A DNA stretch of 64,000 nt from an uncultured Verrucomicrobiae bacterium. Lineage in GTDB: Bacteria; Verrucomicrobiota; Verrucomicrobiia; Limisphaerales; Palsa-1400. Below, one piece after another: positions 2,085 to 55,779 of the stretch. The notes under the pieces were generated by a model that saw only the letters and a program-made list of their open reading frames with translations, searched no databases and had not been told where the DNA came from. The stretch lies in assembly GCA_963707025.1 (NCBI GenBank), contig CAVPOM010000017.1, positions 128,001 to 192,000 on the forward strand, in the 5' to 3' direction. Position 1 is the stretch's first letter. The number at the start of each line of letters is the position of its first letter. The position numbers and the translations under genes are program-made.

Positions 2085-2956
2085 TAAGCGGTGCCGTAGT
2101 TGGGGGCGGGGGCGTTGGAGAAGAGGCGGTACCAGGTGCGGAGGACGAGCAGGATTTTTTGGGGTTTGTTCAGACGGGTGGGAACGGGGCCGAAGACTTG
2201 GAAGCGGCGGTTTTCGAGTTTTTTCAGGAGGCGCCAATAGACCGACCCCATGAGTTCGGCGGCGATCATGGAGCGGCGGTCGGCGGCGGGCAGGGTTTGG
2301 CGGGCGAGGGCGTAGTATTTTTTGGCTTCGCCGGCCACGGCGGAGGCCAGGCGCTGGAAGCGGTCGGAGTATTGCAAGCGCAGGATTTCTTCGGGCGGAA
2401 CGCGGTGGCGCTGGAGTTCGGATTGGGGAAGGTAGATGCGGCCGCGTTCGGCGTCGGTGCGGACGTCGCGGAGAATGTTGGTCAACTGCAAGGCTTTGCC
2501 GAGGTGGACGGCGTAGTCGCGGCAGGCGGGGTCCTGGTAGCCGAAGATTTCCACGCTGAGCAGGCCGACGACAGAGGCGACGCGGTAGCAGTATTGATCG
2601 AGGTCCTGATAGGTTTGGTAACGGTTGATGTCGAGGTCCATTTCGACGCCGCGGATGAGTTGGTCGAAGCAGGTGAAGGGGAGGCGGTAGCGGGCGATGA
2701 CGGGCTGGAGTTCGCGGGCGACGGGGAAGGAGGGAAGGGCGCCGTCGCAGGCGCGGCGGATTTCCTGGCGCCAGGAGGCGAGGCGGGCGCGGCGGGCGGG
2801 AAGGGGTTCGGATGGGTGGTCGGCCACGTCGTCCACTTCGCGGCAGAAGGCGTAGAGGACGGACATGGCGTCGCGCTTGGGCTTGGGCAGGAGGACAAAG
2901 GCGAGGGCGAGGTTGGAGGCGCTTTTGCGGGTAATGGCTGTGCTGTGAGTGGTCAT
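2084..2956 (-). CDS. hpnD: Presqualene diphosphate synthase HpnD (squalene/phytoene synthase family)
   Basis: LYAFCREVDDVAD, YCYRVASVVG, LGKALQLTNILRDV, GRIYLP motifs. Confidence 0.85.
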   Translation of the reverse strand: MTTHSTAITRKSASNLALAFVLLPKPKRDAMSVLYAFCREVDDVADHPSEPLPARRARLASWRQEIRRACDGALPSFPVARELQPVIARYRLPFTCFDQLIRGVEMDLDINRYQTYQDLDQYCYRVASVVGLLSVEIFGYQDPACRDYAVHLGKALQLTNILRDVRTDAERGRIYLPQSELQRHRVPPEEILRLQYSDRFQRLASAVAGEAKKYYALARQTLPAADRRSMIAAELMGSVYWRLLKKLENRRFQVFGPVPTRLNKPQKILLVLRTWYRLFSNAPAPNYGTA

Positions 2957-15888: not shown

Positions 15889-16947
15889 ATGAGTGATTTT
15901 ACTTTCGGCTGCCCGGAGTGCGGCCAGAAAATCTCCTGTGACGGCAGTTACGGCGGCACGCAGATCACCTGTCCCACCTGCCGGCAGCCGTTGACCGTTC
16001 CAGCGCCGGCTCCGGCGGCGGGGCCGGTCACGCCGCCGGCAGTTGTCCCGTTGGGTGCAACGGCCGTCCCGGCGCAGGGCGCGGCCCCGCTCCCGGCGCG
16101 GAGCGCTGACCCAACCGGTCCTCCGCCTCCGCCCGGCGCGCCCGCCGGGCCGGCGGAAAAATCGCCGCCGGGGCCGAAGCCGTCGCTTTGGGAGTTGGCC
16201 TCAGCCCCGCCGGCGGCGGAGGCAGGGACGGCGGCGGCGGGGACGCCGGCGACAGGTAATTCGATATTGGCGATGGCGTCGTTGTTTTGCTCGGCGTGGG
16301 TCGTGCTGGGGTTCATTCCGGGAATCCTGTGCGGACATCTGGCGCGGGCGAAGATGCGGAAGAATCCGCTGTTGAAGGGAAAGGAGATGGCCACGGCGGG
16401 CCTGGCGATCAGTTATGCGATGCTGGGGCTGGTTTTGGCGATTTTCGGGCCGTTCCTGCTGATGCACCAGTTGTATAAACCGGTCGTAGTGGAGCGGACA
16501 ACACCGGCGCAACTGAAGGCGTTGCAGCCCCGGATTGTGGACGAGGTTGAAGCTCGGCCGGCCGCGGCGGGCGGGAATGAGACGGAGCACCATCTGTTGA
16601 CGCGGGGATTTGCGCGGAACGGCGCCTTTGCGCACAACTATTGGCGGGAGGCCTATTCCGGGGGAGCCTTCAGCTATGCGATGAAAGTCCTGCCCGACGC
16701 GGCGATGAGCGTGAACTGCCGTTATTATGGCACGGAGCAGACCTTGCGCATCTTTGACGTCATCGTGGAGGATGAGATCATTGGCACGCAGCAATTGTGC
16801 ATGAACAACCCCGGGCATTATTTCGACGTGGAATATAAGATTCCGCCCGGGGTGACCAAAGGAAAGAGCAAGGTCACGGTGGAGTTGATGGCGCACGGCG
16901 GGATGACGGCGGGCAGGATGTTTGCCATCGAAACGCTGCGGCGCTGA
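15889..16947 (+). CDS. Zn-ribbon + DUF4190 + C-terminal beta-sandwich membrane protein, paralog 2
   Basis: MSDFTFGCPEC..CPTC, Pro-rich linker, DUF4190 TM pair, C-terminal domain resembling that of GH127-type enzymes. Confidence 0.8.
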   Translation: MSDFTFGCPECGQKISCDGSYGGTQITCPTCRQPLTVPAPAPAAGPVTPPAVVPLGATAVPAQGAAPLPARSADPTGPPPPPGAPAGPAEKSPPGPKPSLWELASAPPAAEAGTAAAGTPATGNSILAMASLFCSAWVVLGFIPGILCGHLARAKMRKNPLLKGKEMATAGLAISYAMLGLVLAIFGPFLLMHQLYKPVVVERTTPAQLKALQPRIVDEVEARPAAAGGNETEHHLLTRGFARNGAFAHNYWREAYSGGAFSYAMKVLPDAAMSVNCRYYGTEQTLRIFDVIVEDEIIGTQQLCMNNPGHYFDVEYKIPPGVTKGKSKVTVELMAHGGMTAGRMFAIETLRR

Positions 16948-16954
16948 ACGGGGG

Positions 16955-17022
16955 GAATGGTGAATGGTGAATGGTGAATGGTGAATGGTGAATGGTGAAT
17001 TGGTGAATGGTGAATTGGTGAT
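16955..17022. repeat. 7-bp tandem array (GAATGGT) x~9
   Basis: gaatggt repeated directly after the stop codon, with two 8-bp variant units. Confidence 0.92.
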
Positions 17023-17203: not shown

Positions 17204-19210
17204 ATGAAGAGATTTCACACATGGATTTTGGTTTTGGGCGCGGTCCTGGTTTCCAGCCTGGTCTGCCAGGGACAAGGAGGGGGCGGGGGTGGATTCGGGG
17301 TGGCCAATCCGAATGCCGGGCCGGCGCTGACGATCACAGGGACGGTGTTCGACCCGTCCGGCGCGCCGGCGCCCGGAGTGTTGTTGTTGCTGGCGCCGCC
17401 AACCGCCGGCCAAAACGCGCCCATCAAAAGCGACGCCAATGGAAAATACACGCTCAACTGGCAAGCCCGGCAGGGGACCGGCGGCTTGGTCACGGCCAGC
17501 GAGTATTCGCTGTTCGCGCGCGACTTGGAGCACAATGTCGTGGCCAGCCATGCGGTGGATGCCACGACCACCAGCCTGGACCTGCGCCTGCAACCGGGGC
17601 TGGCCATCTCCACCAAAGTTCAGGACGTTAATGGCAAACCGATCTCCAGCGCCACCGCCAACCTGATTATTTTTTTGGGGGCCAACGGCATCGGGTTTTC
17701 GATCACCAGGCCGCCCGTCAAAGCCGATGAAACCGGCCGGGTCCAAATCGCCGCGCTGCCGCAAGGTTACTCCTACAACCTGGCCGTCAGCGCGCCTGGT
17801 TACGGGGTGGGCCGAACCCCGATGATCGAAGCGGCGGACACGCAAACCAACCGCTTGGAACTGCCCGCCGTGGTGCTCAGATTGGCCAACCTCAAACTCG
17901 CGGGCCAGGTGTTGGGCGCGGACGGACAACCGGCCGCCGCCGCGCGCATCACCATCGCAGGGCAGGGACAACCGTCCACCAACACCCAAACCGATGCCAC
18001 AGGACATTTCGCCCTCACTCTGTGCGAAGGGGCGGTCAGCGTTACGGCCAGCCTGCAAGGCGCGGCGGGCCGCGCCCAAACCGTGGGCGGGGATACCAAT
18101 GTGATCATCCGGCTGGGTAATAACAATCCCCAGGCTGGCATGAACATCGCCTTGCCGGGGCCTGCTCGCGGAGGATTCGCCGCCCCCGGCCGACTGACGA
18201 TTACCGGCACGGTGTTTGATCCCTCCGGCGCGCCCGCGCCAGGGGTGGCGATGTCGGTGACGCCGGGGGCCGGCCTCCTGCAAGACGCGAGGAGCGATGC
18301 CGGCGGCAAATTTACAGTTTCCTGGACGCCCATAAACTTCGTGGGAGGGGGCCGGAGTCCGACGGTCCAGTATTTGCTAATGGGGCGCGATTTGGAGCGC
18401 AATTTTGCCGCCACCGCCGGAATTGACGAGCAGACCACGAGCATGGACCTTCACCTGCAAGGAGGACTCACCTTGTCGGGCACGGTGCAGGACAACAGCG
18501 GCGCGCCGGTGAGAACCGCGACGCTGCGGCTCATCATGATGACCCCGCCGATGAGTTCCCAGTTCAACCGGCAACCGGGCACGGTGGATGAGCAAGGGGC
18601 CTTCACCATGGGCGCGTTGCCGCAGGGACAAGCTTACAACTTGAATGTGAGCGCGCCCGGCTTCGGCTCCGCCAGCACGCCGGTCGCGGCCAATCAGACG
18701 CAAACGGCCAGCCTGCAATTGCCACCCATCAAGCTCAATCCGGCGGACCAAAGACTGGAGGGACAGGTGGTGGGGCCGGATGACCAGCCGGTGCCGGGGG
18801 CGATGGTGCGAGTGATGGGGGTGGGCCAGCCCAACGACAGCACGCGCTCGGATGCCAGCGGGCATTTTGCCTTGCAGGTGTGCGAGGGATCGCTCCGCGT
18901 TTATGCCAACGTGCCGGCCAACACGGTCAACGGCCAGCTCGGCTCCGCCATGGTCCAGGCCCAGGCCGGCGACTTGAATGTCGTCGTCAAGCTGGGCGCG
19001 CGCCAGGCGGCGCCAGGCGGCTTCGGGATGGCGCCCCAGGCTCCCGCGCGGCTGACTCCGTTAAAAGAACAAAGCTGGACCTGGACCGCCCTGGGGCATT
19101 GGCCGCAACGGCACCGGGTGGCGGTGATCGTTCTGCTTTCCTTGCAGTTGACAGCCATGCTGGGCGCGGCGGGCGCCATTCTGTGGCTGACGCGCCGGCG
19201 GCAGAATTAG
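17204..19210 (+). CDS. Secreted protein with repeated carboxypeptidase-regulatory-like (Ig-like) domains and a C-terminal membrane anchor
   Basis: Signal peptide; two ~290-aa halves each beginning LTITGTVFDPSGAPAPGV; C-terminal TM + RRR. Confidence 0.8.
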   Translation: MKRFHTWILVLGAVLVSSLVCQGQGGGGGGFGVANPNAGPALTITGTVFDPSGAPAPGVLLLLAPPTAGQNAPIKSDANGKYTLNWQARQGTGGLVTASEYSLFARDLEHNVVASHAVDATTTSLDLRLQPGLAISTKVQDVNGKPISSATANLIIFLGANGIGFSITRPPVKADETGRVQIAALPQGYSYNLAVSAPGYGVGRTPMIEAADTQTNRLELPAVVLRLANLKLAGQVLGADGQPAAAARITIAGQGQPSTNTQTDATGHFALTLCEGAVSVTASLQGAAGRAQTVGGDTNVIIRLGNNNPQAGMNIALPGPARGGFAAPGRLTITGTVFDPSGAPAPGVAMSVTPGAGLLQDARSDAGGKFTVSWTPINFVGGGRSPTVQYLLMGRDLERNFAATAGIDEQTTSMDLHLQGGLTLSGTVQDNSGAPVRTATLRLIMMTPPMSSQFNRQPGTVDEQGAFTMGALPQGQAYNLNVSAPGFGSASTPVAANQTQTASLQLPPIKLNPADQRLEGQVVGPDDQPVPGAMVRVMGVGQPNDSTRSDASGHFALQVCEGSLRVYANVPANTVNGQLGSAMVQAQAGDLNVVVKLGARQAAPGGFGMAPQAPARLTPLKEQSWTWTALGHWPQRHRVAVIVLLSLQLTAMLGAAGAILWLTRRRQN

Positions 19211-25739: not shown

Positions 25740-28449
25740 AAAGTGTGCTGCACAGTTTGCGCTCGCGCCTGGCCGGTGGATGGCGTTGCGCTCGGTGCTG
25801 GCCGCGCTGGCCATGCTGGGCACGCTCACACTCGCGCTGGTCCTGGCGGACGCGGCGGTGGATTTGCCGCAGGGCGCGCGGGTGGCCGCCCCCGCGTTGC
25901 TGGCCGCGGCGGTTTTGGGGGTGGTGCTGGGCGGATGGGTGTTGTGGCGGCGCCTGACGGAAATAAGGCTGGCCCGCGCCTTGGAGCGCAAGGACACCTC
26001 GCTGGGCAACCGCCTGACCAACGCCGTGGACCTGGCGCGGAAAACCGGCGACAGCCCGGCGCAGGAATTCTTGCGGCGCCAGGCCGTCGAGCTGGGACGG
26101 CGCTCGGCGGCGGCATTGCCGGCGCGGCTGTTCCTGGGACGCAGCGTGCCGCGGACGTTTTTGATTTTGTTGGGCAGCCTGCTGGCCTGGGGAATTTTGC
26201 GGCTGGCGGCGCCGGATTTGGTCCGGGCCGTTGTGCCGCGCTTTTTGGATGCGCGAGGGGACCATCCGCCCTTCAGCCGGTTGATCCTCCAGGTGACTCC
26301 CGGGGCCGCTTCCATTCTCTACGGCGGCCAGATGGAAGTGCGGGCGACGGCCAGCGGCAGGTTGGTGGACAAATTGTGGCTGGTGCAGCGGACCGGCACG
26401 CGGGAGACGCGCGCCATCATGTTTTTGGCCCCGGACAAATCGTTTTTTCAAACCCTGGCCAATTTGCGGGAAGCCACCGAGTATTGGGTGACGGACGGGG
26501 CGGCGCGCAGCCGGCGGTTTGCCGTGACGGTGCTGAACACGCCGCAAATCGCGCAGGTGGAAGTGACAACGGAGTTTCCCCAATACACCGGCAAACCGGC
26601 CCACACGGGCAAATTGAGCGAGGAAGCGCAGGCCCTGCCGGAAGACACCCGCGTCAGCTTCCGCGTGACCAGCAACCGCCCGCTCCAATCGGGCGCGCTT
26701 GAGCTGACGCCGGTGCTGGGGGGAAAACCGGCCACCGTCAAACTGGCCCCGGCCCAAGCCGGCACTGCCGTCGTCAGCGGCAGCTTCATCCTGACCGAGG
26801 CAGTCGCCTTCAGCCTTTCCGTGCGGGACACCGGCGGGCTGGACTCAGCGGAAAACCGGCGGGGACGGTTTAATATTCTGCCGGACCAGCCGCCGCGCCT
26901 CTTTGTGCTGGAGCCGGGCAAAGACGCGGTGGCGACGCCGACGACCCGCGTCCCGGTGCGGGTGCAGGCGACGGATGATTACGCGGTGACGCGAGTGGGC
27001 TGGCTGCGCGGATTCAACCGCTCGACCGAACGCCCGCTGAACATGAAGCTGACACTGCAAGGCGGCCCGCAAGCGGTCGAGGCGGCCGGAGCGTTTGAAC
27101 TGGCCAAGCTGGGGGTGCGGCCCGGGGACGTGATTGATTACTATTTTGAAGCGGCGGACAATAATCCCAAGGGGCCCAATGTCGTGTTCAGCCGCCCCTT
27201 CCGGCTGGAGATCATTTCGCCCGAACAATACGAAGCGATGTTGCGCCAATACGCCGCGCAAAAGGCGCTCTTTGAATCCTATTTCAAAAACGACGCCTGG
27301 CTCAAGCGCCTGGCGGAACGGGCGCGCAGCGCCGCAGCCAAGGCGGAAAAGACCGATCCGGGCGCGCGCGACGAGGCGGCGGCGCTGGCCAAACTGCTGG
27401 ACGAATACCAGAAGGCGCTGCAGAAACTTTTGCAGGAGCCGGCCATGTTCGACGTGGAGCAGTCGTTCCGGGAGACACTGTCCGCGGAACTGGCCGCCAT
27501 CGAGGCCTTGAAATCGAGGCTGGACAAGGCCCTCGCCGGCGGCGTGCTGGATGCGGAGGCGCTGAAGAAGTTGAGCGAGGAACTGGGCGCGTTGAGCCAG
27601 GAGGAGGCGGCGGCGGTGTTCCTGCCGGCGCAGGAAATTGCGGCGGTGGTGGATCTGCTGGCGGCGGCGGACGCTTTTGTCAAGCTGGCCCAGCGCCAGG
27701 CCGCCCTGGCCCAATTGCTGGAGCGCTTTGCCCAAATCCCCAATCCCTTGTCGCGCCTGGAGCAGATGGAATTGCAGGAACTGGCCCACCAACAGCATCG
27801 CGTGCAGGACGAACTGCGGGATTTGCTGGGGCGATTGCCGGAGCTGCTGAACAAGATTCCGCGCAACGCCGCCTACGAACAATTGCATGAGGACGTGAAT
27901 GATTTTCTCCAGGCGGCGGGCGATTTGAAAATATTTGAGGACCTGGCCGCCGCCTCGCAGGCGCTGGATTTGCCGGAGGCGCGCACCGGCCAGGCTCTGG
28001 CCGCGCGCGCCGCGGCCAAAATGGACCAGCTTATCGCCCGCTGCAATGCCGCGGGCACGGCGGGCGACCAAGCCCTGACCCTGCGCTTCGCGCCTCTTCT
28101 CAGAAAGCCCGGCCTGGGCAACACCCTCGCCCAGATTCTGGCCGCGCTCGGGTCGGGCCAGGGCCAGGGGGGACGGGATGGTTACGGATTGTTTAATGAA
28201 GGCGTCGCCGTGTACGGCCCGAACGTCCAATTGGCCGGAGAGCAGGCCGGCAACCGGGGCGAGGCCCGCGCCGACACCAGCCGCCGCGACCAGCAGGTGG
28301 CGGGCGACGCGCGCGACCCGGGTTTGGCGCAGCCGGAGGCGCCGGGCCGCGTCCGCCTGCAGCCCGACGCCAAATTCCCCCTGCGCTACCGGGAGCTGGT
28401 GGGCGAGTATTTTCGCGCCGTCGCGGAATCCCAAAAGGAAGGAAACTGA
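25736..28449 (+). CDS. DUF4175-like membrane protein with long helical/coiled-coil C-terminus (frameshift ~25775)
   Basis: LGNRLTNAVDL, ATDDYAV, GDVIDYYFEAADN, FPLRYRELVGEYF; ATG at 25736 overlaps the upstream stop. Confidence 0.78.
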
Positions 28450-28455
28450 TTATGA

Positions 28456-28480
28456 GATTAGGATTAAGATTAGGATTAGG
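28456..28480. repeat. 6-bp tandem array (GATTAR) x4
   Basis: gattag gattaa gattag gattag; same unit as 59736-59817. Confidence 0.8.
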
Positions 28481-28503
28481 AAGGAGACGTTCCGGCCGGG
28501 GCG

Positions 28504-45785: not shown

Positions 45786-47368
45786 ATGAGCCAAGGCGTT
45801 GACAAGCGGTTTTCGGCGGGCAAATCGAAACTCATCCTGGGTGTGCTCGTCTGCGGTCTGATCGGCGCGGCGTTGGCCTTCCGCATCCCCGGCGCGGGCG
45901 GGGCTGGCGTCAGCACTACCTTCAAGCTGCGCGAGGTTTCCGCTTTTGGCGTGGACAAGGACCACTTCCTCCGGGGACAACTCTGCCGCTGCCAGGACAA
46001 GCCATTCGCGGAGGTGAAGAATTATCCCGACTTCGCCTCCAAGGCGCCCATCTTCGGGTCGGTTCGGTTTGGCGCGAAAGCGGACCAGACCAACTCCGGC
46101 TGGCTGTATTATTTTGCCGTGGATGAAAGCCGCGGCACCGGCAAAGGCTATGACCGCCTTTATTTTGACAGCAACCAGGACTTGGACTTGCGCAATGATC
46201 CGGTGGCCAAACTCCAGCAGCATTCGCCCGATCATGCTAATGCCGTGAACTTCGGCGGCACCAAGGCGAACGTGGCCTTCGATTTTCTGAAGGTCAACCT
46301 GGCCGGCAGCGACGGCGCCTCCAACCTGGTGGAACTCATGCCGCGCCTCCTCGTCACGGCGAGCGACACGCAAACCTACTGCTACCTGTTTTTCGTGCGC
46401 ACCCGCCTTTTTGAAGGCGACATCCGCATAGGCGGCGAAAAGTTTCACGCCCAGCTCGGCAATGATTATGCCATAACACCCGGCTTCGATTCCCCCTCGA
46501 CCGCCCTGGTTCTGAGCCAGGGGCGCAATACCATTGATTGGTGGGGCGGGGACCGGCAATCGGCTATTCACAAGGTGGACGGCCACTTCTACCGCCTTTC
46601 CGCCACCCCGGCCGGCGAGTTGACCGTGCATCCTTATGAGGGAGAGTTGGGAACCTTTGAAGTGGGAGCAGGCGCCCGAAAACTGACCAATTTCAGCCTG
46701 TCCGGTTCTTTGCGCGCCAAGGATTGGGCCGTGCCGGTGGGCGGCGACATCCAAGACGGCCGGCCTGTCGAGGCCAAGCGTTGCCAGATTCCGGTGGGCG
46801 ATTACCTGCCGGAGTATCTCTCCCTGCAATTCGGCCGGCTGCAAATAAATGTTTCGCAAAACTACCATTCGGAAGGCAAACGGCAGAGCCGGGAAGGCCG
46901 GGCGGACGTTTTCGGAATGGCCGTCCGCAAGGACCAGCCGTTCGTGCTGGATTTCTCCAACAAACCCGACGTGATGTTCGCTTCCCCCGCCCCGGGTCAG
47001 CGGATCAAAGCGGGCGACACCCTCATGGTCATGGCCGTGCTGGTGGACCCGAAACTGGACATCATGATCCGCGGACTGGACGACACTTCGCGCAAGCAGA
47101 CCAAGGATGCCGAGGGCAAGCCCCTGGGCTATGAACGGACCCTGCCGCTGGATCCCACCGTGATCATCACCGGGCCGGCGGCGAGAAAGTGGCTGAGGGC
47201 GTCATGCCCTTTGGGTGAGACGGCACCTGCGGGTATTCATGGCGAGTGCCAAAAGATCTCAAACTGGACGGCCGGGCGGAAACTTTCAACATCCAGGTGT
47301 TTTACGACACGCTGGAACTTTACGGCAAGGTCAGCGCCAGCCGCCCCGTCACGGTCTATCGCGAATGA
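45786..47368 (+). CDS. Putative exported selenoprotein C (MPFG-U-DGTC); Sec at 47216-47218; 1-nt frameshift ~47171
   Basis: N-terminal TM; YDRLYFDSNQDLDL shared with paralogs; restoring one C gives EKVAEGVMPFG-TGA-DGTCGYSWRVP plus an open tail (49 aa after TGA) to the stop at 47366-47368. Confidence 0.8.
47232..47250 (+). promoter_or_regulatory. SECIS-like hairpin 1
   Basis: GGTATTC-ATGGC-GAGTGCC, loop at +21 after TGA. Confidence 0.8.
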
Positions 47369-47442
47369 ACGGGGCGCCGGGCCGCGGATCAACCAAACTT
47401 GTCGTCCGCTGGCACAAAAATTCAATGAAAGAAAGAATCCTT

Positions 47443-48234
47443 ATGATCCCAAAGTTCCATAAAGCAAACCGCGGCTTTGCCGTGGCGGCCTTCTTGCTGG
47501 CGGGCCTCGGACTGGTGACGCTGACGGACGCGCAAACCGGCGCCAATCCCGACACCACGGCCCCCGCGCAGGCAGATGGTCCGCCGCGCATTCTCGCCAC
47601 CTCGCCCAAGAGCGGCGTCAACAATGTGGATCCGGCTCTGAAGGAGATCACCATCACCTTTGACCGCGACATGGAAGGCGGCATGTCCTGGACCGGAGGC
47701 GGGCCGGCCTTTCCCAAATCGCCGGAGGGGGCGAAGGCCCGTTGGCGCGACAAGCGCACCTGCGTTTTGCCCGTGACGCTCCAAACCGGCCATGACTACC
47801 GCGTCGGCATCAATTCACCCAGCTTTCAGAATTTTCGGAGCGCCGCCAGCGTGCCGGCCGCGCCCACCGCCATTGTCTTCAGGACCAGCGGCCCGAAGGT
47901 CGAAAGCAAAGCGCCTGAGATTGTCAGCCTCAACCCGGCCAATGGCGCGAGCGATGTCAGCCCGGCGCTGACCGAGTTGCGGGTCACCTTCAACATGGCC
48001 ATGGGGAATGGATGTTCCTGGACGGGCGGCGGTCCCAGGTATCCCGTTATTCCTGCCGGGAAGAAAGCTTCTTGGAGCAAGGACCACAAAACTTGTGTAT
48101 TGCCGGTGGAGCTGAAACCAGGCTCGTCGTATCAATTGGGCCTCAATAGCCTGTCGTACAAAGGCTTTCAGAGCGAAGACGGCGTTCCGTTGAAACCGGT
48201 GACCTACACCTTCAAAACGAGCGATGCGCCGTGA
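47443..48234 (+). CDS. Exported protein with two bacterial Ig-like (Big_5-type) domains
   Basis: Signal peptide; two repeats P.I...P..G...V.PAL.E...TF...M..G.SWTGGGP..TCVLPV.L. Confidence 0.82.
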   Translation: MIPKFHKANRGFAVAAFLLAGLGLVTLTDAQTGANPDTTAPAQADGPPRILATSPKSGVNNVDPALKEITITFDRDMEGGMSWTGGGPAFPKSPEGAKARWRDKRTCVLPVTLQTGHDYRVGINSPSFQNFRSAASVPAAPTAIVFRTSGPKVESKAPEIVSLNPANGASDVSPALTELRVTFNMAMGNGCSWTGGGPRYPVIPAGKKASWSKDHKTCVLPVELKPGSSYQLGLNSLSYKGFQSEDGVPLKPVTYTFKTSDAP

Positions 48235-48271
48235 CTGTTCCGTAACGCGCTGATGCTTCCCGGGCTGCTGA

Positions 48272-50038
48272 ATGGTTGCCATCAATGTTATGAAACCTGA
48301 TCGGGCCGCCAGAACCTCCCTGATCATTCCTCGATGTTTCCAAGCAGCCGCTGCCGGAAACACCGGGGTTCTGCTGGCGTCTTTGATTTTGTTTCTCTCC
48401 GCTTGCCCGCCAGCCAAGGCCCGCGAAAGTCCACCTGCCGCCGGGGCCGCGGTTGGCGCCGCAGTTGACTTGTTGCAACGCTATCCGACCAAGTTGGCGG
48501 CGGGCGATACCAACCCGAATCAAGCCCGGTCATGGGAATTCACGGACGGCGACATCTTTCGGGTGACACAGTTTCGTCTGGCGGCGGGCAAGGAATTGCG
48601 GGTGGAGACAGGGCCCGCTGACCTGGGCATCGGCCACTGCGCGGATGGCGCCGTCTGGGCGGTGCTCATCCCGCGAGCCGGCGGAACACTGACCAGTCAA
48701 GAGAGCAACCAGGAAGCCATCGCCCATGTGTGGCTTCGGTTTCACCCGAAGGAGATCAGACACCTGTTCCCGCCGGAGACGGTGTTCGCCGGCGGAGCTG
48801 TCAACTTGTCAGCCCAGATGCGCCTCATTGCCAATGCCAAGATGACTTCAAGCTGGCAGGCCGGAGGCAGGGCCATGATTCCGGAGCCAAAGGACATGAC
48901 CGTGGATGTGGATGCCAAGAATGGCTGGCGTCGGTTCTTCGCGGTGGATCAGCAGTCCCAAACGGCAGAATACGTTGACGCCTTCGCCAACCGGTCCGTC
49001 AAGCTCCCGCCGCCTCTGACGCAAGGCGCAGCCCAGGCGGCTTTTGATCAACTCTGGGAGGCATTCGATCGCGACTACGCCATGTTCGTGCTCCGCCCGG
49101 AAGTGGATTGGGCAAAGTTGCGCGAGCAGTATCGTCCGCCGGCGCTCGCCAGCAAATCCGCCTATGAGTTGGCCGGCGTCTGCGCGGACATGCTGGCCAA
49201 GCTCCGCGACCTGCACATCTGGCTGACGGTCGCCGGCGCGCCAGTCCCGGTGTTTAACCGGCCCCGGTCAGCCAATGCCAATCCGCGAGCCTGCCAGGCC
49301 CTTCTCGGCGGTTTCAAACAGGAAGGACGGGTGGCTTGGGCCGTCACGACCAACCACATCGGCTTCATCGCCATCTTCGGCTGGGACGATCCGAAGATTC
49401 CGGCGCAGTGCGGCGAAGCCCTGGAACAAATGCGCGCTACCCGCGGGCTGATTGTGGATGTGCGCCTGAACGGCGGTGGTGGCGAACCATTGGCCGCACG
49501 ATTCGCGGGCCGTTTTCTGGAGAAGGAGTTCGTCTATGCCTTTAGCCAGTTTCGGAACGGCCCAAGCCACACGAACCTGACGGACAAGTCCCAACGCGCC
49601 ATCGCGCCGCGCGGGCCGTGGCGCTACGACCGTCCCGTCCTGTTGCTCATCGGCCAGAAGTGCATGAGCAGCGATGAATCCTTCGTCGGCATGATGACGG
49701 GCGACCCGCAGGTCACGACCATGGGCGATCACACTTGCGGCTCCAGCGGCAACCCCGAAATCGTCCGCCTGCCACTGGACATGACGGTGAGCGTGCCGCA
49801 GTGGATTGATTACCTGCCGGACGGCACGCCGCTGGATGAGCGCGGGTTCCAACCGCAGATTCCGTTTCAGCCGGCGCCCGGCGCGTTTGAAGGCGGTCGG
49901 GACGACCTGCTCGCCGCCGCGCTGGCGCGTCTGAGTCAGGCGCCTTTGCCCGGCAAACAGATTGAAGGACCCGTGTTTGAACCCGCGACTTCCGACCTGC
50001 CGGATCATAGCCAGGGCGTGGAGGAAGAAGCCAAGTGA
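48272..50038 (+). CDS. S41 family peptidase with Tricorn-C1-like domain, possible lipoprotein
   Basis: FDQLWEAFDRDYAMF..VDW, LRDLH, IVDVRLNGGG, CMSSDESF, TCGSSGNP; LSAC lipobox-like. Confidence 0.9.
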   Translation: MVAINVMKPDRAARTSLIIPRCFQAAAAGNTGVLLASLILFLSACPPAKARESPPAAGAAVGAAVDLLQRYPTKLAAGDTNPNQARSWEFTDGDIFRVTQFRLAAGKELRVETGPADLGIGHCADGAVWAVLIPRAGGTLTSQESNQEAIAHVWLRFHPKEIRHLFPPETVFAGGAVNLSAQMRLIANAKMTSSWQAGGRAMIPEPKDMTVDVDAKNGWRRFFAVDQQSQTAEYVDAFANRSVKLPPPLTQGAAQAAFDQLWEAFDRDYAMFVLRPEVDWAKLREQYRPPALASKSAYELAGVCADMLAKLRDLHIWLTVAGAPVPVFNRPRSANANPRACQALLGGFKQEGRVAWAVTTNHIGFIAIFGWDDPKIPAQCGEALEQMRATRGLIVDVRLNGGGGEPLAARFAGRFLEKEFVYAFSQFRNGPSHTNLTDKSQRAIAPRGPWRYDRPVLLLIGQKCMSSDESFVGMMTGDPQVTTMGDHTCGSSGNPEIVRLPLDMTVSVPQWIDYLPDGTPLDERGFQPQIPFQPAPGAFEGGRDDLLAAALARLSQAPLPGKQIEGPVFEPATSDLPDHSQGVEEEAK

Positions 50039-50085
50039 ACGTGCGGTGCGGCAAAAAAGCCCCCCAAGTCACCGCCAGCAGCGCG

Positions 50086-50973
50086 TTAAATTGATGACTT
50101 GTTCGTATCGCTCGGCGGCGTGTTTTGCGGCAGGGCGAAGCACGGCTCCAGGGCGCCGCAGGTGGCGCATTCCAGGCAGCGGATGCAGCCGGAGACGTTG
50201 ACGGCCTGGTCCACTTTCACGCCCATCGAGCAGCGGCTGCGGCAGAGGTTGCATTCGACGCACTGCTGAGGATTGAACCGGAGATGAAACAGGCTGAATC
50301 GGTTGAAGAGCGCGAGCAGTCCGCCGAGCGGACAAAACATCCGGCACCACGGCCGGTGAATGAAAAGCGCGACGGCAAGGAATGAAAGCAAAAGCCCGGT
50401 CTTAAAACCGCTCATGATCCACCCGTGGCCGGCCAGCAGGCTTTGCACCGAGTAAGGCACGCCCGCTTCCAGCGCGCCCGCCGGACAAAGCCGGCAGATG
50501 GACACCACCTGCTTCTCAAACGGAATGCCTTTGTAACCCAAAATCAGCGGCAAAAGAATCACCAGCCCGCCCAGAACCACGTAACGGATGCTGCCGGTCC
50601 AGGACGGCAGGTTGATTTTCCGAGTTGTGATTTTGCCAAGCAAGTCCTGGAGAAAACCGAACGGACAAGCCCAGCCGCAGACGATGGAACCGCCCACCGC
50701 GCCAACCAGCAGCAGCACGCCGATCAACAAATACGGCGCTTCCCCAACCACCGGCAGCAGCGCCGCGTAGTTCGCCATCACCCCTATCGGGCAGGCGAAA
50801 GCCGACAGCGGGCACGAGTAGCAGTGGAACACGCAGCCGGGAATGCCATGCAGCCATTGGCCCGCCGGCGCCAGCCACACCCCCAGAAAACCGGTTTGCA
50901 CCCAGGGACGGACGCGGGCAAGCATCCGCCCTCGAGCGGCGGCCTGGGGCAATGCTGGTGGCTGATGGCTCAT
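50086..50973 (-). CDS. Membrane 4Fe-4S binding protein (NapH/YccM-like polyferredoxin)
   Basis: CYSCPLSAFACPIG, CGWACPFG, CRLCPAG, CRMFCPLG, CVECNLCRSRC, CIRCLEC. Confidence 0.92.
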   Translation of the reverse strand: MSHQPPALPQAAARGRMLARVRPWVQTGFLGVWLAPAGQWLHGIPGCVFHCYSCPLSAFACPIGVMANYAALLPVVGEAPYLLIGVLLLVGAVGGSIVCGWACPFGFLQDLLGKITTRKINLPSWTGSIRYVVLGGLVILLPLILGYKGIPFEKQVVSICRLCPAGALEAGVPYSVQSLLAGHGWIMSGFKTGLLLSFLAVALFIHRPWCRMFCPLGGLLALFNRFSLFHLRFNPQQCVECNLCRSRCSMGVKVDQAVNVSGCIRCLECATCGALEPCFALPQNTPPSDTNKSSI

Positions 50974-50983
50974 GGATTAAGAG

Positions 50984-51011
50984 GGCTGAAGGCTGAAGGC
51001 TAAAGGCTGAA
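50984..51011. repeat. 7-bp array (GGCTRAA) x4, left arm
   Basis: ggctgaa ggctgaa ggctaaa ggctgaa. Confidence 0.92.
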
Positions 51012-51043
51012 ACATGGGGGTTGTGGGAAAAATCTTCATGAAT

Positions 51044-51412
51044 TTAGCTTTTTGCGCAGCCTTTGGCCGTTTTATCAACGCTTGTGAAAATTGCGATGAG
51101 TTGGCGCGTTTCCTCGAGCAAGCCGGCCATCCGGGCTTGCGTGACACAACCGCCTTCCACCAGCAGTCCGAGCCAATACTCGGTTTCTTCGATTTCCTTG
51201 AGACAGTCTCCAACCTTGGAAATAAACTCGGCTTTCGACCGTCCGCGCGAAGCCTCGCGATAATTCGCCCCGACCGAAGTTCCCGAACGAAGCACCTGCT
51301 TGCCCAGCACTTGCGCAACCGTGCTGGACTTGGGCAACTTGGAATACAAATGAATGATCCGAAGCGCGAACGCCTTCGTTCTCGGTTTCAAATCTTGCGG
51401 CTCATCACTCAT
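51044..51412 (-). CDS. Four-helix-bundle protein (23S rRNA IVP-like family)
   Basis: DLKPRTKAFALRII, QVLRSGTSVGANYREA, SKAEFISK, EIEETEYWL. Confidence 0.93.
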   Translation of the reverse strand: MSDEPQDLKPRTKAFALRIIHLYSKLPKSSTVAQVLGKQVLRSGTSVGANYREASRGRSKAEFISKVGDCLKEIEETEYWLGLLVEGGCVTQARMAGLLEETRQLIAIFTSVDKTAKGCAKS

Positions 51413-51469
51413 AATGCAAACGACAGATTTCACATTCAAATTCAAACTTATCTCAAAAACGCAGCCGAT

Positions 51470-51511
51470 TTTAGCCTTCAACCTTTAGCCTTCAGCCTTT
51501 AGCCTTTAGCC
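51470..51511. repeat. 7-bp array (TTYAGCC) x6, right arm, inverted relative to 50984-51011
   Basis: tttagcc ttcaacc tttagcc ttcagcc tttagcc tttagcc. Confidence 0.92.
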
Positions 51512-51519
51512 TTTCTAAT

Positions 51520-51538
51520 CGGCCACGCCATGCGGCCG
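51520..51538 (-). promoter_or_regulatory. SECIS-like hairpin 4 (in 3' UTR)
   Basis: Minus strand CGGCCGC-ATGGC-GTGGCCG, loop at +21 after the TGA at 51552-51554. Confidence 0.85.
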
Positions 51539-51542
51539 GGGT

Positions 51543-51917
51543 TTATTTCATTCAAGTGGGACAGGGTGTTTTTGCGCTCGTGTTTACGCGGATTTTCCAC
51601 GCCGGCGGCCGGTAATTGGCCTGTTGTTTGGCCCAGCGGTCCAGCGCCTCGCCCGGATTGGCCACGTTATCCAATTTGGGCGGCGGTGGCGGCGCAACCT
51701 GGTCCGGGTATTGCAGGCCGCTGGAGGAGAAGGCCGTGACCAACTGCGTTTCCCACGCGGTGTTGCCGTCCACCGTGTCCACCTTGGTCAGATGCCGCGC
51801 GCCGCAAAAAACCACCACCGCGCCGGTCAGCGCCACGACGAATCCGCCCCAGAAATCGTGGCCTTCCCGCGCGCGCAACGCGCGGTTGACCGGTGGCTGT
51901 GGGACTCGTTTGAACAT
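51543..51917 (-). CDS. Putative small membrane selenoprotein with C-terminal CxxU (KTPCPT-U-MK); Sec at 51552-51554
   Basis: ATG 25 nt after the tRNA-Sec 3' end; one TM (FWGGFVVALTGAVVVFCGA); TGT CCC ACT TGA ATG AAA TAA then SECIS. Confidence 0.82.
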
Positions 51918-51941
51918 GCTAAAGGGGTGGAGGGGGCAAAT

Positions 51942-52038
51942 TGGCGGAGGTGGATGGGAATCGAACCCACCTGGGACTTTGTTGAGCCCCACACTGGTTT
52001 TGAAGACCAGGAGCGCCACCAGGCCGCCCCACACCTCC
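51942..52038 (-). tRNA. selC: tRNA-Sec (anticodon TCA)
   Basis: GGAGGTG/CACCTCC-G-CCA acceptor, CTGGT-CTTCAAA-ACCAG anticodon arm, long variable arm TGGGGCT..AGTCCCA, GTGGG-TTCGATT-CCCAT T arm; 97 nt. Confidence 0.97.
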
Positions 52039-52352
52039 GCACCGGGTCGCTGCGCCGCCGGCCGATGGCAGGCGTGATTTATTTCCGGTGGGCTTCCTCA
52101 TACACCTATTGTGACAGGTTTGGCCGATACTTCAATGCGAATAAATTACATCGGCCAATCAACGTCTGTCATCCTGCCGCCCAAGCCCGCCACAATCAGG
52201 CCAAACACCAAAAGTATGTATCCGACAGTCGCCATCCCTTCGTAAATTAAACCATGCCGATCAACATGCTGCTCGTGAAACTCAACCCGGCCGCTAGCGC
52301 GATCACTTCGCCAGTTTTTTGATCTCCGCCTCCAGTTCGTCGAGGGCAAAAT

Positions 52353-53621
52353 CTAAGTTCTTGGTTTGAGCATCAGCGGACTGGTCTCCACCTGGAACGG
52401 GCTGACAATTTTGACGCTGCCAGTCAACGGACGCTGCGTATTTTTGGGCTCCCGCCATGAGAGCGAACAAACGCCGCCTCATCCAAACTCGAAAGTGCTG
52501 GAAAAAACCAGGGTTCCAGTGGTGCTGGCCAGCACCAGTTTTGGCCCCTGCGGGCGCTGCCCGCCGCGCAGCATTTCTATGGATTCCTCCTGCCGGCCCA
52601 CAAATTGGAGACTAAAGTTGATCTGGCGGTCGGCCCCCTCCGCCGCCTTGAGCACGGCTTGCACCGGCTCGCCGATTTTGAGCAAGGCGGTCTTGTCGGC
52701 GGCGACCTGGAAGCCGGCGGTTTTTGGAAAACCAGAGCCGGACAGCGTCCAGGCCGCCCCTTTTTCATCCTTGCGGTTGATCGTCCAGCGGACGACCCGG
52801 TAATGGCCGGCCGGCAAGGTGACTTCGCCGTTGACCGGTTTGCGCACGAAATGGCCGTTCTCACCGAAAACGACCAGTTCGGAAATGTTTTCCGGCACGC
52901 GCACCTGGCCGAGCGTGACGTCCTCCGCCTTTTGCACCTTGACAAACGCGCCGTCGCGGGCCACTTCGATCCGGTAAAGCTTGCCGTTGACTTCCAGCAT
53001 CCGGCCCAAGAAATGTTCGCTGGTCTGGTCGCCCTCGATCTGGACTCGGTCGCTGTCATAGGCATCGGCGCCGACGTCGTTGAACGTGCCATTGACGTTG
53101 CCGTCAATCAGTTGGAGGCGCTTTTTCACGCCGTCGAAGTTCACCATCCCTTCATACCAGCCGGCGGAGGAGGCCAGCAATTCCGCGGGGCCGGTTGCGG
53201 ATTCATAAAGCCGGAACTCCAGATGATAGGTGATCGGCCCGTCCCCGCCCTTGAAAACCAGGCGGGCCGGCGGAAATTCGGCGTTGGGATTGGCCCGCGC
53301 TTGGAGAGGCGTTTTGTCGTCCAGCCGGCCATTGCCGTTGCTGTCAATGAAGAGCCGGTCATACGGCCCGCCCTTGCGCGAGCGGTCCAGGCAAACCCAG
53401 CGCCCGCCGCTGGGATCCATCGGCGTCACCCAGCGCGCGAAATAGGGCGCGGCGTTCAGCTTGGGCAGGGCGACGCCGGGCGGCGGATTGGTGGTCAGGT
53501 CCAATTGGTGGTAGGCCTGGCCCTGCGCCCCGGTGTGGTATTGCAGCCTTTGCTCCGTTTGCGCCCAGGCGCTGCCGGCCAGAACCATTCCGGCCAGAAT
53601 CAATTGTTTGGAAAATTTCAT
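52353..53621 (-). CDS. Putative exported selenoprotein B (FEFG-U-GGVC); Sec at 52479-52481
   Basis: Signal peptide (SAWA|Q); YDRLFIDSNGNGRL; ORF-track stop TGA is followed in frame by GGVCSLSWREP.. (41 aa) to TAG at 52353-52355. Confidence 0.85.
52448..52464 (-). promoter_or_regulatory. SECIS-like hairpin 2
   Basis: Minus strand GCTCTC-ATGGC-GGGAGC, loop at +21. Confidence 0.8.
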
Positions 53622-53652
53622 AAGGTCGCGGTTGATTTTTTCTTCCTCAAAT

Positions 53653-55779
53653 TCAAGTTTTCAGACTGGCCTCCAGCAATGGCGCCCTCACCGGCGGCAA
53701 CTCCGGCTTCACGTGCAGCAGCGATTTGAGCCGTTCGCGGTAAAATGGACTGGCCGACGACAGGATCAAGAACGGCAGCAGCACCGCGAAATGGAAGGCC
53801 GCCACCAGGAGAACGGGAGCAAACAATACGCTCCAGTCAATCCGCCCGCTTGAGCCTATCATCTCTATTAAAAAGAAAGGCAAGCCGATCAGCACCCAGA
53901 GAACGGCCGGCAGGACGAGCAGCCAGATATAAAGTCCGAGCGGACGGTAACGACCGCGGCAAATCAGGCCGGCAAGACTCAGCGCCACCGAACTGACCAG
54001 AACGCACAGGGCCAGCGCCACGGCGACTGGAAACGCTTCGTCCGTGGAACTCCAGTCTTGCCGCGCGACAAAGGCCAGCCCGCTGAAACCCGTCAAGACG
54101 GACAGGATGCACAGAAAAGTGACGAACCGATGTTGCCGCCGCAGATAATTTGACAGAAGCCAGACTGCGGCCAGACCAACCGCCAGCGCGGCGATGACAT
54201 CCAGGAAAAAATTCGTTCCCGGTGGCAGGATGTCCGGCGGCGCCAGGGTCAGCGCGATCAGGCATCCGAGCGGCAGCCAGATCAACCACGCGGCGCCACA
54301 ACGATTGGGTTTGAAGGCGAGCAACCCCAGGATGGCCAGCCACGGCAGCAACAGCGGCGCAAAACCGGGCAGCACCCAGTCGTAGGCGACCTGCGGCCCT
54401 TCCTTCGCGCCCAGCGCACCGAGGTCCGACGAAGCCACAATGGCCAGTTTGCCGCCGGCGGTGAGAGGCACTCGCCACGAGTGCGAACAGGTCCCGCCTC
54501 AGCCAAACTCAAAATCGCCCGTCGCAATTTTCTTTTCCCCGCAGTAAATCGCGAAGGCCGGCGGCTTGGAGCGGTCTTGCGCCGCCATTTGGTAAGATTC
54601 GCGGCCCGCGCCCACCAGGAGATAATCCAGCCGCAAATCCTGCCCGTGGCGGCTGGCGCTGACGGTATTGGTCAACGGCCCGCCCACGTTCAACACCAGC
54701 GGGGTCTTGCCGTCCACCGCCATTTGCCCGAGGCTCTGCGTCTGGTTGGCACTGCGGAAGGCCGCGGCCCCGTTTTTTTCGAGCTGGATCTCAAGCTGGT
54801 TGTAGCTGCCGGTCGGAATTTTGACCAGGCCTGCCGGCTGATCGAGCATCACCAGATACGGCCCGCCGCTCAGAACCAGGCGGCCGATCAATTGGCCGGT
54901 GATTTTCACTTCGCCCAGCGCGACGGATTGCTCGGTGAATTGGAGCGTCGGCCTGGCTTCGCCGTTTTCCGAACCTGCGGTCCACTCCAGTTGATAGGCG
55001 TGGCCATCCACGAAAACTTTCCGCGAAGGGGGAACAGGAACACTGGCGAGCAAACCGTCGCCCGCGTTGAACGCCTGGGCTCGCTTTTCCCAGGGGCGCA
55101 GCAGCAACCGGCTGTTCTGCAACAAGCCCGACGGGCCCCAGATATTTTGCACGATGCCCACCTGCCAGTCCCGCCCTTGCAAGGTCATTTTGCCTTGCCA
55201 GAACGAGCGCACCGCCGCGGAACAGACAAGTTGCGAAGGCGGACCATAGTCATAGAAGTTGAGGTCCGCCAGCACCCGCCACCTGCCGGCAGGGGTGTTG
55301 AAAAGCAGGTGGACGTTCGTGAAGCCCTGATAATTTGCCGGCCCCGTCGCGCCGGCCAAAAACACGCCGGAGGGATCGTCGGTCAAATCCTGGTTGCGAT
55401 TGAGGTCCAGGTAAAGTTTGCGCGCGTCGCGCTGCCAGAGAAAGGCAATGGCATTGCCCGCATCGCCCGCGAAATTCAAAGCGCCGCGAGCGATTTTGCC
55501 CGAAAGCGCCGCCGGCTCCTTTTTGAAAGGCATGGATTGCGTCCCCAGGCCAACGCCCCAGTTGTTGACGCTATAGGCTGTTTCCTGATATTCCAGCGAA
55601 GCCACCGTCGCGTTTGAGGAGGGGGAACCGGCCGGCGCGCCCTCCGCCGCGAGAAGAACAGCTCCCGGCCAAAATACCGCCATCAGCGTCCACGTCAGCC
55701 GGGCCACCCGGACGTTTCCAAGGCACCGCCAAGATAAACCATCAGTCCTTTGCTTTGCCATTAGACATTTCATTAGCAC
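53653..55779 (-). CDS. Putative selenoprotein A: exported domain + FEFG-U-GGTC + multi-TM C-terminal domain; Sec at 54499-54501
   Basis: ORFs 54499-55779 and 53653-54471 are in the same frame, separated only by TGA-GGTCSHSWR; KLYLDLNRNQDL shared with paralogs; exact start uncertain. Confidence 0.85.
54468..54484 (-). promoter_or_regulatory. SECIS-like hairpin 3
   Basis: Minus strand GCACTC-GTGGC-GAGTGC, loop at +21. Confidence 0.8.

Follow-up and report, generated by a model that had tools for sequence, protein, structure and literature searches.

Hairpins with RUGGC loops behind in-frame UGA codons in a Verrucomicrobiota genome, a probable variant of the bacterial SECIS element

We analyzed a window of 64,000 nucleotides (nt) of DNA from an uncultured Verrucomicrobiae bacterium (positions 128,001 to 192,000 of contig CAVPOM010000017.1, assembly GCA_963707025.1), in which four TGA codons are each followed by a short hairpin with the loop RTGGC (RUGGC in RNA). 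Comparative evidence leads us to read these hairpins as bacterial selenocysteine insertion sequence (SECIS) elements that would direct the insertion of selenocysteine (Sec, or U in protein motifs) at UGA, a reading to which we assign a probability of roughly 0.85. Three of the hairpins lie in paralogous genes (A, B, and C) of a family that we call FG-U after its Sec motif, and the fourth follows the UGA of a small gene, D, next to the tRNA-Sec gene (selC). The elements form a well-defined variant inside a known class; the protein families concerned appear to be unannotated.

Layout of the hairpins and constraint on their sequence

The initial annotation had placed an RTGGC loop at +21 to +25 after four TGA codons, and this layout was found at all four sites (Table 1), the loop starting 20 nt past the TGA in each case. 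The eight TGA stops offered there as controls are all genuine plus-strand TGAs, and none has an RTGGC hairpin. The minimum free energies (MFE) of the isolated hairpins A, B, C, and D were -8.4, -8.4, -10.3, and -13.6 kcal/mol, respectively; within 55-nt contexts, stability at the four sites was not above that of shuffled sequences (z, -1.3 to 0).

Table 1. Coordinates of the features discussed (window positions unless another contig is named)
Feature	Location	Strand	Details
TGA of gene A	47216..47218	+	13-nt spacer, 7-bp stem, loop ATGGC follow
Hairpin A (putative SECIS)	47232..47250	+	Stem 47232-47238/47244-47250 with two G.U pairs; loop 47239-47243
Hairpin B (putative SECIS)	52448..52464	-	TGA 52481; 14-nt spacer, 6-bp stem, loop ATGGC 52454-52458
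Hairpin C (putative SECIS)	54468..54484	-	TGA 54501; 14-nt spacer, 6-bp stem, loop GTGGC 54474-54478
Hairpin D (putative SECIS)	51520..51538	-	TGA 51554; 13-nt spacer, 7-bp stem, loop ATGGC 51527-51531
Gene A	45786..47368	+	Start approximate; 1-nt deletion near 47172-47176 (frame 0 to frame 2)
Gene B	52353..53621	-	422 codons including U at 52479-52481; signal peptide; all-beta fold
Gene C	53653..55779	-	About 426 codons, U at 54499-54501, then multipass membrane domain of about 281 codons
Gene D	51543..51917	-	124 codons; U 51552-51554, TAA 51543-51545
tRNA-Sec gene (selC)	51942..52038	-	ARAGORN; Rfam RF01852, 72.9 bits; anticodon TCA
NapH/NosR-like membrane polyferredoxin gene	50086..50973	-	Pfam Fer4_5 and NCBIfam napH-like, below cutoff
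C7 gene region	G000 C7:480500-483500 (L066/L068)		Outside the window
G036 open reading frame	L128 (G036:C11) 2509-2787	+	92 codons; 6-bp stem, GTGGC loop, same spacing

We aligned 40 distinct hairpin sequences from 12 genomes and built a covariance model from the alignment. As the initial annotation had claimed, the stems vary and yet stay paired: of the 240 cells of the six core pairs, 239 are paired, and three of the pairs vary on both sides, with exchanges such as CG (20), GC (10), and UA (8) or AU (17), UA (12), and CG (11). The covariation is real; its score was reached by none of 500 shuffles, and slid controls all scored far lower. When the model was run on the genome itself (150 of about 4,500 first-look candidates were scored), it returned six sites at 37 to 53 bits (E <= 5e-5), among them A at 39.1 bits (E = 1.9e-5), B at 50.5 bits, and C at 46.8 bits; the next-best score was 19 bits (E = 0.9). 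The genome-wide scan that the initial annotation had called for thus recovers no family beyond FG-U and that of gene D. Among 60 relatives, the model gave 46 matches at E <= 0.05, of which 44 were already known via the two proteins. One of the other two, a weak match in genome G028, is out of frame within a response-regulator gene and was rejected. The second lies in an open reading frame (ORF) of genome G036 with the peptide ...R-G-C-G-U-V-G-G-Y-R-R-S-W-R-A-P...; the stem of its hairpin differs, and the ORF bears no relation to the FG-U family. As this ORF has no orthologue among 60 relatives of G036, we treat it as a lead only.

Codon choice within the hairpins points to constraint at the RNA level. 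Among 28 FG-U members of related genomes, His CAC is paired with Val GTG (8/8), Tyr TAC with Val GTA (8/8), and Leu CTC with Glu GAG (12/12). GTA makes up only 7.5% of the Val codons in FG-U genes, and the switch between His and Tyr, with the matching Val codon, occurs inside one subfamily. Window copy A has the form TAT/GTG, with two G.U pairs. We then compared codons at the hairpin in 80 B-type genes with 29,072 codons elsewhere in the same genes; relatedness among the genes means that the counts are not independent, while the pattern by which the genes were collected acts at the protein level and leaves codon choice unconstrained. The hairpin Leu is CTC in 80 of 80 genes (background, 22%), the Ser that opens the loop is TCA or TCG in all 80 (29%), the Glu is GAG in all 80 (54%), and the Arg is CGA, CGG, or AGA in all 80 (42%). 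CGC, which accounts for 42% of Arg codons elsewhere in these genes, is never used at the hairpin. A spacing of 20 nt equals six codons plus 2 nt, so that N-C-R/U-G-G/C-G-N is read as [S/P/T/A]-W-R. The three codons are set by the loop together with its closing pair, which explains the conservation of Ser-Trp-Arg; the "SWR" motif amounts to the SECIS element viewed through the genetic code. In this respect the initial annotation, which held that the loop is not a by-product of Ser-Trp-Arg codons, was right.

The textbook case of a bacterial SECIS element is that of Escherichia coli fdhF. The consensus model that underlies bSECISearch, as set out in the part of the source consulted, has an apical loop of 3 to 9 nt, an upper stem of 4 to 16 bp, 16 to 37 nt from UGA to loop, an MFE of <= -7.5 kcal/mol, and a G at loop position 1, position 2, or both, with the pattern N1 G [G|U] N N2 (PMC13188914). 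The hairpins described here resemble that model in lying immediately 3' of an in-frame, conserved UGA after a spacer of 13 to 14 nt and in having a 5-nt loop with G-G, a 6- to 7-bp stem, and an MFE of -8.4 to -13.6 kcal/mol. Their UGA-to-loop distances also fall within its range (20 nt at all FG-U sites, 19 to 20 nt in D, and 33 nt in the second hairpin of the C7 gene considered below). They differ from it in that G-G occupies loop positions 3 and 4 rather than 1 and 2, unless R:C closes the loop. They also differ from bacterial SECIS elements in the lack of a bulged U in the stems and in the near invariance of a 34-nt element across two phyla within one protein family.

The FG-U genes, gene D, and their surroundings

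Genes A, B, and C are paralogues once TGA is read as U. All three encode a signal peptide, and a stretch resembling D-x-N-x-N-G-x-L-x-D-D occurs in the FG-U paralogues. The motif FG-U-[GD]G-x-C-x-x-S-W-R-[VE]-P sits about 380 to 430 residues into A, B, and C (in A, ...VMPFG-U-DGTCGYSWRVPKD...), and two further copies on contig C11 bring the number in the genome to five. We take the frameshift in gene A to be an assembly artifact, not decay, because rpoB was recovered in 10 pieces (G000:C6:397500-401300) and selA, selB, and selD, which are clustered on contig C12 (G000:C12:64800-69400), are likewise split over frames. Long-read indel errors are the likely cause of such breaks. The orthologue of gene A in genome G005, against which the deletion in A was recognized, is intact, with 595 open codons and one TGA. 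In genome G021, the orthologue (L046, G021:C106) carries a TAG in frame, some 25 codons ahead of Sec (...YERN*SLDPK...), and an intact SECIS; this copy may be a pseudogene or reflect an assembly error.

Gene B ends 41 codons past U. Its AlphaFold model is all-beta and confident (predicted local distance difference test [pLDDT] score, 89.1; predicted template modeling [pTM] score, 0.81), and a Foldseek search of the model against PDB returned only a generic likeness to tandem immunoglobulin-like or macroglobulin domains (template modeling [TM] score <= 0.18, one match at E <= 0.001). A C11 paralogue of gene C is 42% identical to it and has the same layout, including a membrane domain of about 280 residues. 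A query with the C-terminal part of the C11 copy gave 34 matches, spread over 11 of 61 related genomes; exactly one TGA is present in 33 of the matches, and the exception stops short of the Sec position.

A scan of one genome per species with a protein pattern that requires SWR gave 339 confirmed loci, of which the best 80 were taken further. Their sources are Verrucomicrobiota, Planctomycetota, and a small number of metagenome-assembled genomes (MAGs) that carry other labels. In the 79 usable B-type loci, the Sec codon is TGA in 78 and TGT in 1, with the proviso that Cys forms lacking SWR could escape the pattern. The sole TGT form (L174, match region around 1825), in an uncultured Pirellulales MAG, retains a complete hairpin and stems either from a sequencing error or from a Sec codon that recently changed to Cys. 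The frame remains open for more than 200 codons past TGA in 28 of the 79 loci, and the read-through extensions of relatives contain Laminin_G_3 (E = 1e-26) and discoidin-like domains. Gene callers terminate FG-U proteins at the TGA. Among the database homologues of B, the 120 listed of 744 are all 362 to 396 residues long and cover 85 to 90% of B, which indicates that the entries are cut at the TGA; the same 120 are named "hypothetical protein" or unnamed, and none has a Pfam domain. Searches against Pfam-A and NCBIfam 20.0 gave no match at E <= 0.01 for A (both parts), B, C, D, or the protein labelled E.

Protein D has one hydrophobic helix and the C terminus ...T-P-C-P-T-U-M-K-stop, for which we refer to its family as CPT-U. 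Because its UGA lies three codons before the end, the hairpin falls in the 3' untranslated region (UTR). The initial annotation was thus correct that this hairpin stands behind a stop codon, but the TGA that it follows at fixed distance is an in-frame codon rather than the stop. With D as the query, all 11 strong matches had one TGA; orthologues from other genomes retain the TGA without exception (10 of 10), and no Cys form occurs among them. The hairpin, although noncoding, is retained in 11 of 11 loci, and the sequence after it diverges. Stems of the forms CCAC/GTGG, CCGC/GTGG (with a G.U pair), and CCGC/GCGG represent a compensatory change via a G.U intermediate. The loops in the 11 loci are ATGGC (4), GTGGC (4), and ACGGC (3), at a spacing of 19 or 20 nt. 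The best score in an ESM Atlas lookup of D, 0.81, was uninformative.

The neighborhood of D is conserved as well. selC lies 24 nt upstream of the D start on the same strand, and it is upstream of D in 9 of the 10 other loci; the NapH-like gene directly follows D in 10 of 10. In the window, as in 4 of the 10 other genomes, FG-U genes and D share a contig and lie no more than about 10 kb apart. The window also carries, in the stretch that separates D from the NapH-like gene (50975-51520), a gene for a four-helix-bundle or "23S rRNA intervening sequence protein" (51044-51481, minus strand), flanked by short repeats of the AAGGCT type; none of the 10 other D loci has such a gene, and it therefore looks like an insertion specific to this genome.

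Reach of the motif and alternative explanations

The initial annotation went on to propose that the motif is the organism's SECIS consensus and can be used to find the rest of its selenoproteome. In its strict form, in which RTGGC at exactly +21 is a single SelB consensus on every selenoprotein gene and a scan recovers the selenoproteome, we consider this proposal unlikely. It accounts for the fact that six of the seven Sec genes found carry RTGGC at +21 and that D and the G036 ORF extend the RTGGC hairpin beyond the FG-U family. The covariance model, however, recovers only two families (six genes), and the seventh Sec gene, at C7:482038 (minus strand), has no RTGGC at +21 and a candidate loop, AAGGC, at +34. 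This gene came from SECIS-independent de novo screens that scored codon usage on both sides of every TGA and looked for redox motifs near U. The screens produced 153 and 98 candidates, nearly all of them adjacent same-frame genes, with C7:482038 the one true new case. Four other candidates (C5:318217, C6:487514, C4:169089, and C12:8811) proved on inspection to be junk frames or gene ends.

The C7 gene encodes a multidomain CarboxypepD_reg protein with the motif U-P-S-C-Y-A-D-C, and the Sec position in its family is TGA in 3 genomes and an aligned Cys in 13 homologues. Two hairpins follow the UGA. Hairpin 1 (UGCGG-AUUG-CCGCA) starts 11 nt past the UGA at -7.2 kcal/mol; it fails the energy cutoff and shows no covariation. 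Hairpin 2, at -10.5 kcal/mol, has a 7-bp stem that contains a single bulge, and its loop, AAGGC, lies 33 nt past the UGA; on these features we regard it as the best candidate SECIS of the gene. Relatives were gathered with a degenerate DNA pattern, which by design retrieves TGA forms only; in 15 Sec forms from other genomes, hairpin 2 shows G-C, G.U, and A-U exchanges, and the loops at that place are CGGTC (8), ACGGC (3), AAGGC (2), ATGGC (1), and ATGAA (1). The variable spacing and ACGGC loops of the D orthologues likewise speak against a single fixed form. What the elements of this genome have in common is a stable short hairpin with an A/G-N-G-G-C loop, and the spacing is not shared. The consensus claim therefore holds in so far as a SECIS element is the best reading of each hairpin, and it fails in its single fixed spacing. 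The idea that the motif would recover the remaining selenoproteome was not supported. No in-frame stop was found in matches to Molybdopterin (2), selD (5), AhpC-TSA (11), Redoxin (9), Thioredoxin (7), or GSHPx (2), and fdh-type, selD, and prx genes in this genome contain no TGA; the genes by which the initial annotation proposed to check the motif are thus uninformative in this organism. A distant CarboxypepD_reg paralogue of the C7 selenoprotein, with no stop and no U/C-P-S-C motif, is present in the window (18461-18814, plus strand; G000:C17:146461-146814), and similar paralogues adjoin D in genomes G003 and G005.

Several observations weigh against the SECIS reading or narrow it. By frequency, the motif fails to set TGA apart from the remaining triplets: in the window TGA-N20-RTGGC has 8 matches where 4.7 are expected, a total of 8 is attained by 7 of 100 shuffles, and the 4 matches other than the sites described have no stem whatever. 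Genome-wide, there are 432 RTGGC hairpins with a stem of at least 5 bp, and the triplet at the right offset before them is TGA 15 times, TGG 16 times, and CGA 11 times; TGA at that offset (-23) is no commoner than at other in-phase offsets (20 at -32 and 18 at -35). Of the 15 TGA sites with the strict motif, 6 are in credible frames and 9 are chance-like, with frames open for few codons. A loose motif with a spacing of 18 to 24 nt is found, per 1,000 ends, at 3.2 TGA, 5.5 TAA, and 7.2 TAG. A relaxed motif of the A-N-G-G-C type with a spacing of 12 to 41 nt gives 7.45, 3.99, and 5.35, respectively, and its leftover TGA matches looked spurious by context; the one examined closely was rejected. 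The bare or loose motif is not enriched after TGA, and because the counts fail to separate TGA from other triplets or from TAA and TAG ends, we dropped simple motif frequency as evidence. True sites are distinguished by context and conservation, and the relaxed motif is unusable alone as a gene finder.

Other adverse points concern the breadth of the evidence. Since five of the six sites in the genome itself are paralogous, the consensus rests on two independent contexts there, plus one unvalidated ORF elsewhere. The loops AUGGC and ACGGC do not literally follow the G rule of the bacterial model and do so only if A and C form the N1:N2 pair; GUGGC does follow it, with G at position 1 or as a U-G-G triloop closed by G-C. 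The assembly contains many indel errors, gene A itself being frameshifted, and the C7 gene is not found by the covariance model. The de novo screens were insensitive because the assembly is full of frameshifts, and they missed A, D, and the gene labelled F. Given the many errors in the genome and its completeness of 88%, the seven genes, from three families, are the set found and do not amount to a census.

A second explanation is that the hairpins are a by-product of the conserved peptide C-S-x-S-W-R-x-P and have no RNA function. The peptide is indeed common to three of the four window sites and to five of the six in the genome, but this explanation is very improbable given that synonymous positions at the hairpin are fixed to a degree far above what codon usage elsewhere in these genes would give, that Val GTG or GTA follows the choice of His or Tyr, that the D hairpin is noncoding, and that the unrelated G036 ORF shows the same RNA and again S-W-R. 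We find it equally hard to accept that the TGAs are ordinary stops, with the hairpins acting as terminators or regulatory elements and the downstream frames being separate genes or chance. That TGA is the commonest stop in the genome and that gene callers end the proteins there would fit this view; no T-run is present 3' of the hairpins, however, frames stay open for 200 to more than 500 codons past TGA in 28 of 79 loci and include Pfam domains, gene C runs into a 281-codon membrane domain conserved in its paralogue, and the Sec machinery is present, with selC adjacent to D. Least probable of all is a genome-wide reassignment of UGA (for example, to Trp or Gly) that would make SECIS elements unneeded: UGA-to-Trp lineages within Verrucomicrobiota are reported in the part of PMC13462651 consulted, but most well-scoring frames in this genome end at TGA (3,485, versus 1,989 at TAA and 1,110 at TAG), which as the commonest ordinary stop argues against global reassignment, TGA read-through elsewhere in the region yields junk, a dedicated tRNA-Sec with the anticodon TCA is present, and no in-frame TGA occurs at Trp or Gly columns in the conserved families searched.

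Relation to known systems and a possible selenium-dependent module

Read as SECIS elements, the hairpins would act in the manner known for the class. The ribosome would pause at UGA, SelB carrying Sec-tRNA(Sec) would bind the RUGGC loop, and the bound SelB would deliver selenocysteine in place of termination. Three of the elements would operate from inside the coding sequences of the secreted all-beta FG-U paralogues, where the spacing would fix the reading frame of the hairpin, and the fourth would serve the UGA of the small membrane-anchored C-P-T-U-M-K-stop protein from the 3' UTR.

The nearest known analogue of D is the group of C-terminal selenoproteins termed "UXX-star," which, together with "KCU-star" proteins, are described in the consulted part of PMC13188914. 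D shares with them an end of the type U-x-x-stop, a redox-type CxxU motif, and a SECIS that has to reach beyond the stop, and it differs in being membrane anchored, in lying directly after selC and before a NapH-like gene, and in having no family match at E <= 0.01. Archaeal and eukaryotic SECIS elements also reside in the 3' UTR. In contrast to these, as covered in the same portion of that source, the D element is 13 nt from UGA, has an architecture like that of coding-region elements, and lacks distant, kink-turn, or GAA_A features (PMC13188914). A search of Rfam over the region at E <= 1 returned only tRNA-Sec and one unrelated weak match.

The FG-U proteins share a G-U-x-G motif around Sec with "hypothetical protein DG" (NF049953; PMC13188914, part consulted). 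They differ from it in that NF049953 gives no match at FG-U loci; its best matches in the genome are at E = 0.014 or worse and on other contigs. A table in the consulted part of that review lists about 100 selenoprotein families, none of which, by the terms searched, matches those described here (PMC13188914). The FG-U, CPT-U, and C7 families are not mentioned in the portions consulted of PMC4807772, PMC13188914, PMC13326102, and PMC12013277; table S9 of PMC4807772 or the work of Haft and Tolstoy (2025) could list them.

The heterogeneity of bacterial SECIS elements is the main obstacle to the annotation of bacterial selenoproteins. The present case offers a sharply defined, lineage-wide variant backed by synonymous-site evidence, and it illustrates how a requirement of the RNA can keep a tripeptide, here S-W-R, conserved. 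For at least two families, FG-U-GGxC and CPT-U, every public entry ends at the Sec codon; such clipped entries lack the Sec-Cys motif and, in many species, also lectin-like or membrane domains that run to hundreds of residues. The motif is limited in that it does not serve as a general selenoproteome finder for this organism. In abundant bacteria of soil and peat, the gene order selC/D/NapH-like may represent a redox system that is new and depends on selenium. We infer a redox role for U-x3-C and C-x-x-U, with electrons from the NapH-like protein, from motif type and gene order.

More tentatively, this lineage may keep its whole Sec machinery solely for an extracytoplasmic selenium-dependent module, undescribed so far, an idea that we consider less likely than not. 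Such a module would comprise the selC-linked operon, with the small membrane-anchored CPT-U protein and a NapH-like quinol-oxidizing polyferredoxin; beta-sandwich proteins, either secreted or tethered to the membrane, whose U-x3-C loop is present in five copies here and at no fewer than 339 loci in Verrucomicrobiota and Planctomycetota MAGs; and the CarboxypepD_reg protein with U-x-x-C. If this were true, the near-invariant 34-nt SECIS would mark a cassette that has spread in the Planctomycetota-Verrucomicrobiota-Chlamydiota (PVC) group with its own recoding signal.

Finally, tandem repeats directly follow two ordinary TGA stops of the window: GAATGGT units at 16945-16990 and GATTAG/GATTAA units at 28447-28490, both on the plus strand.

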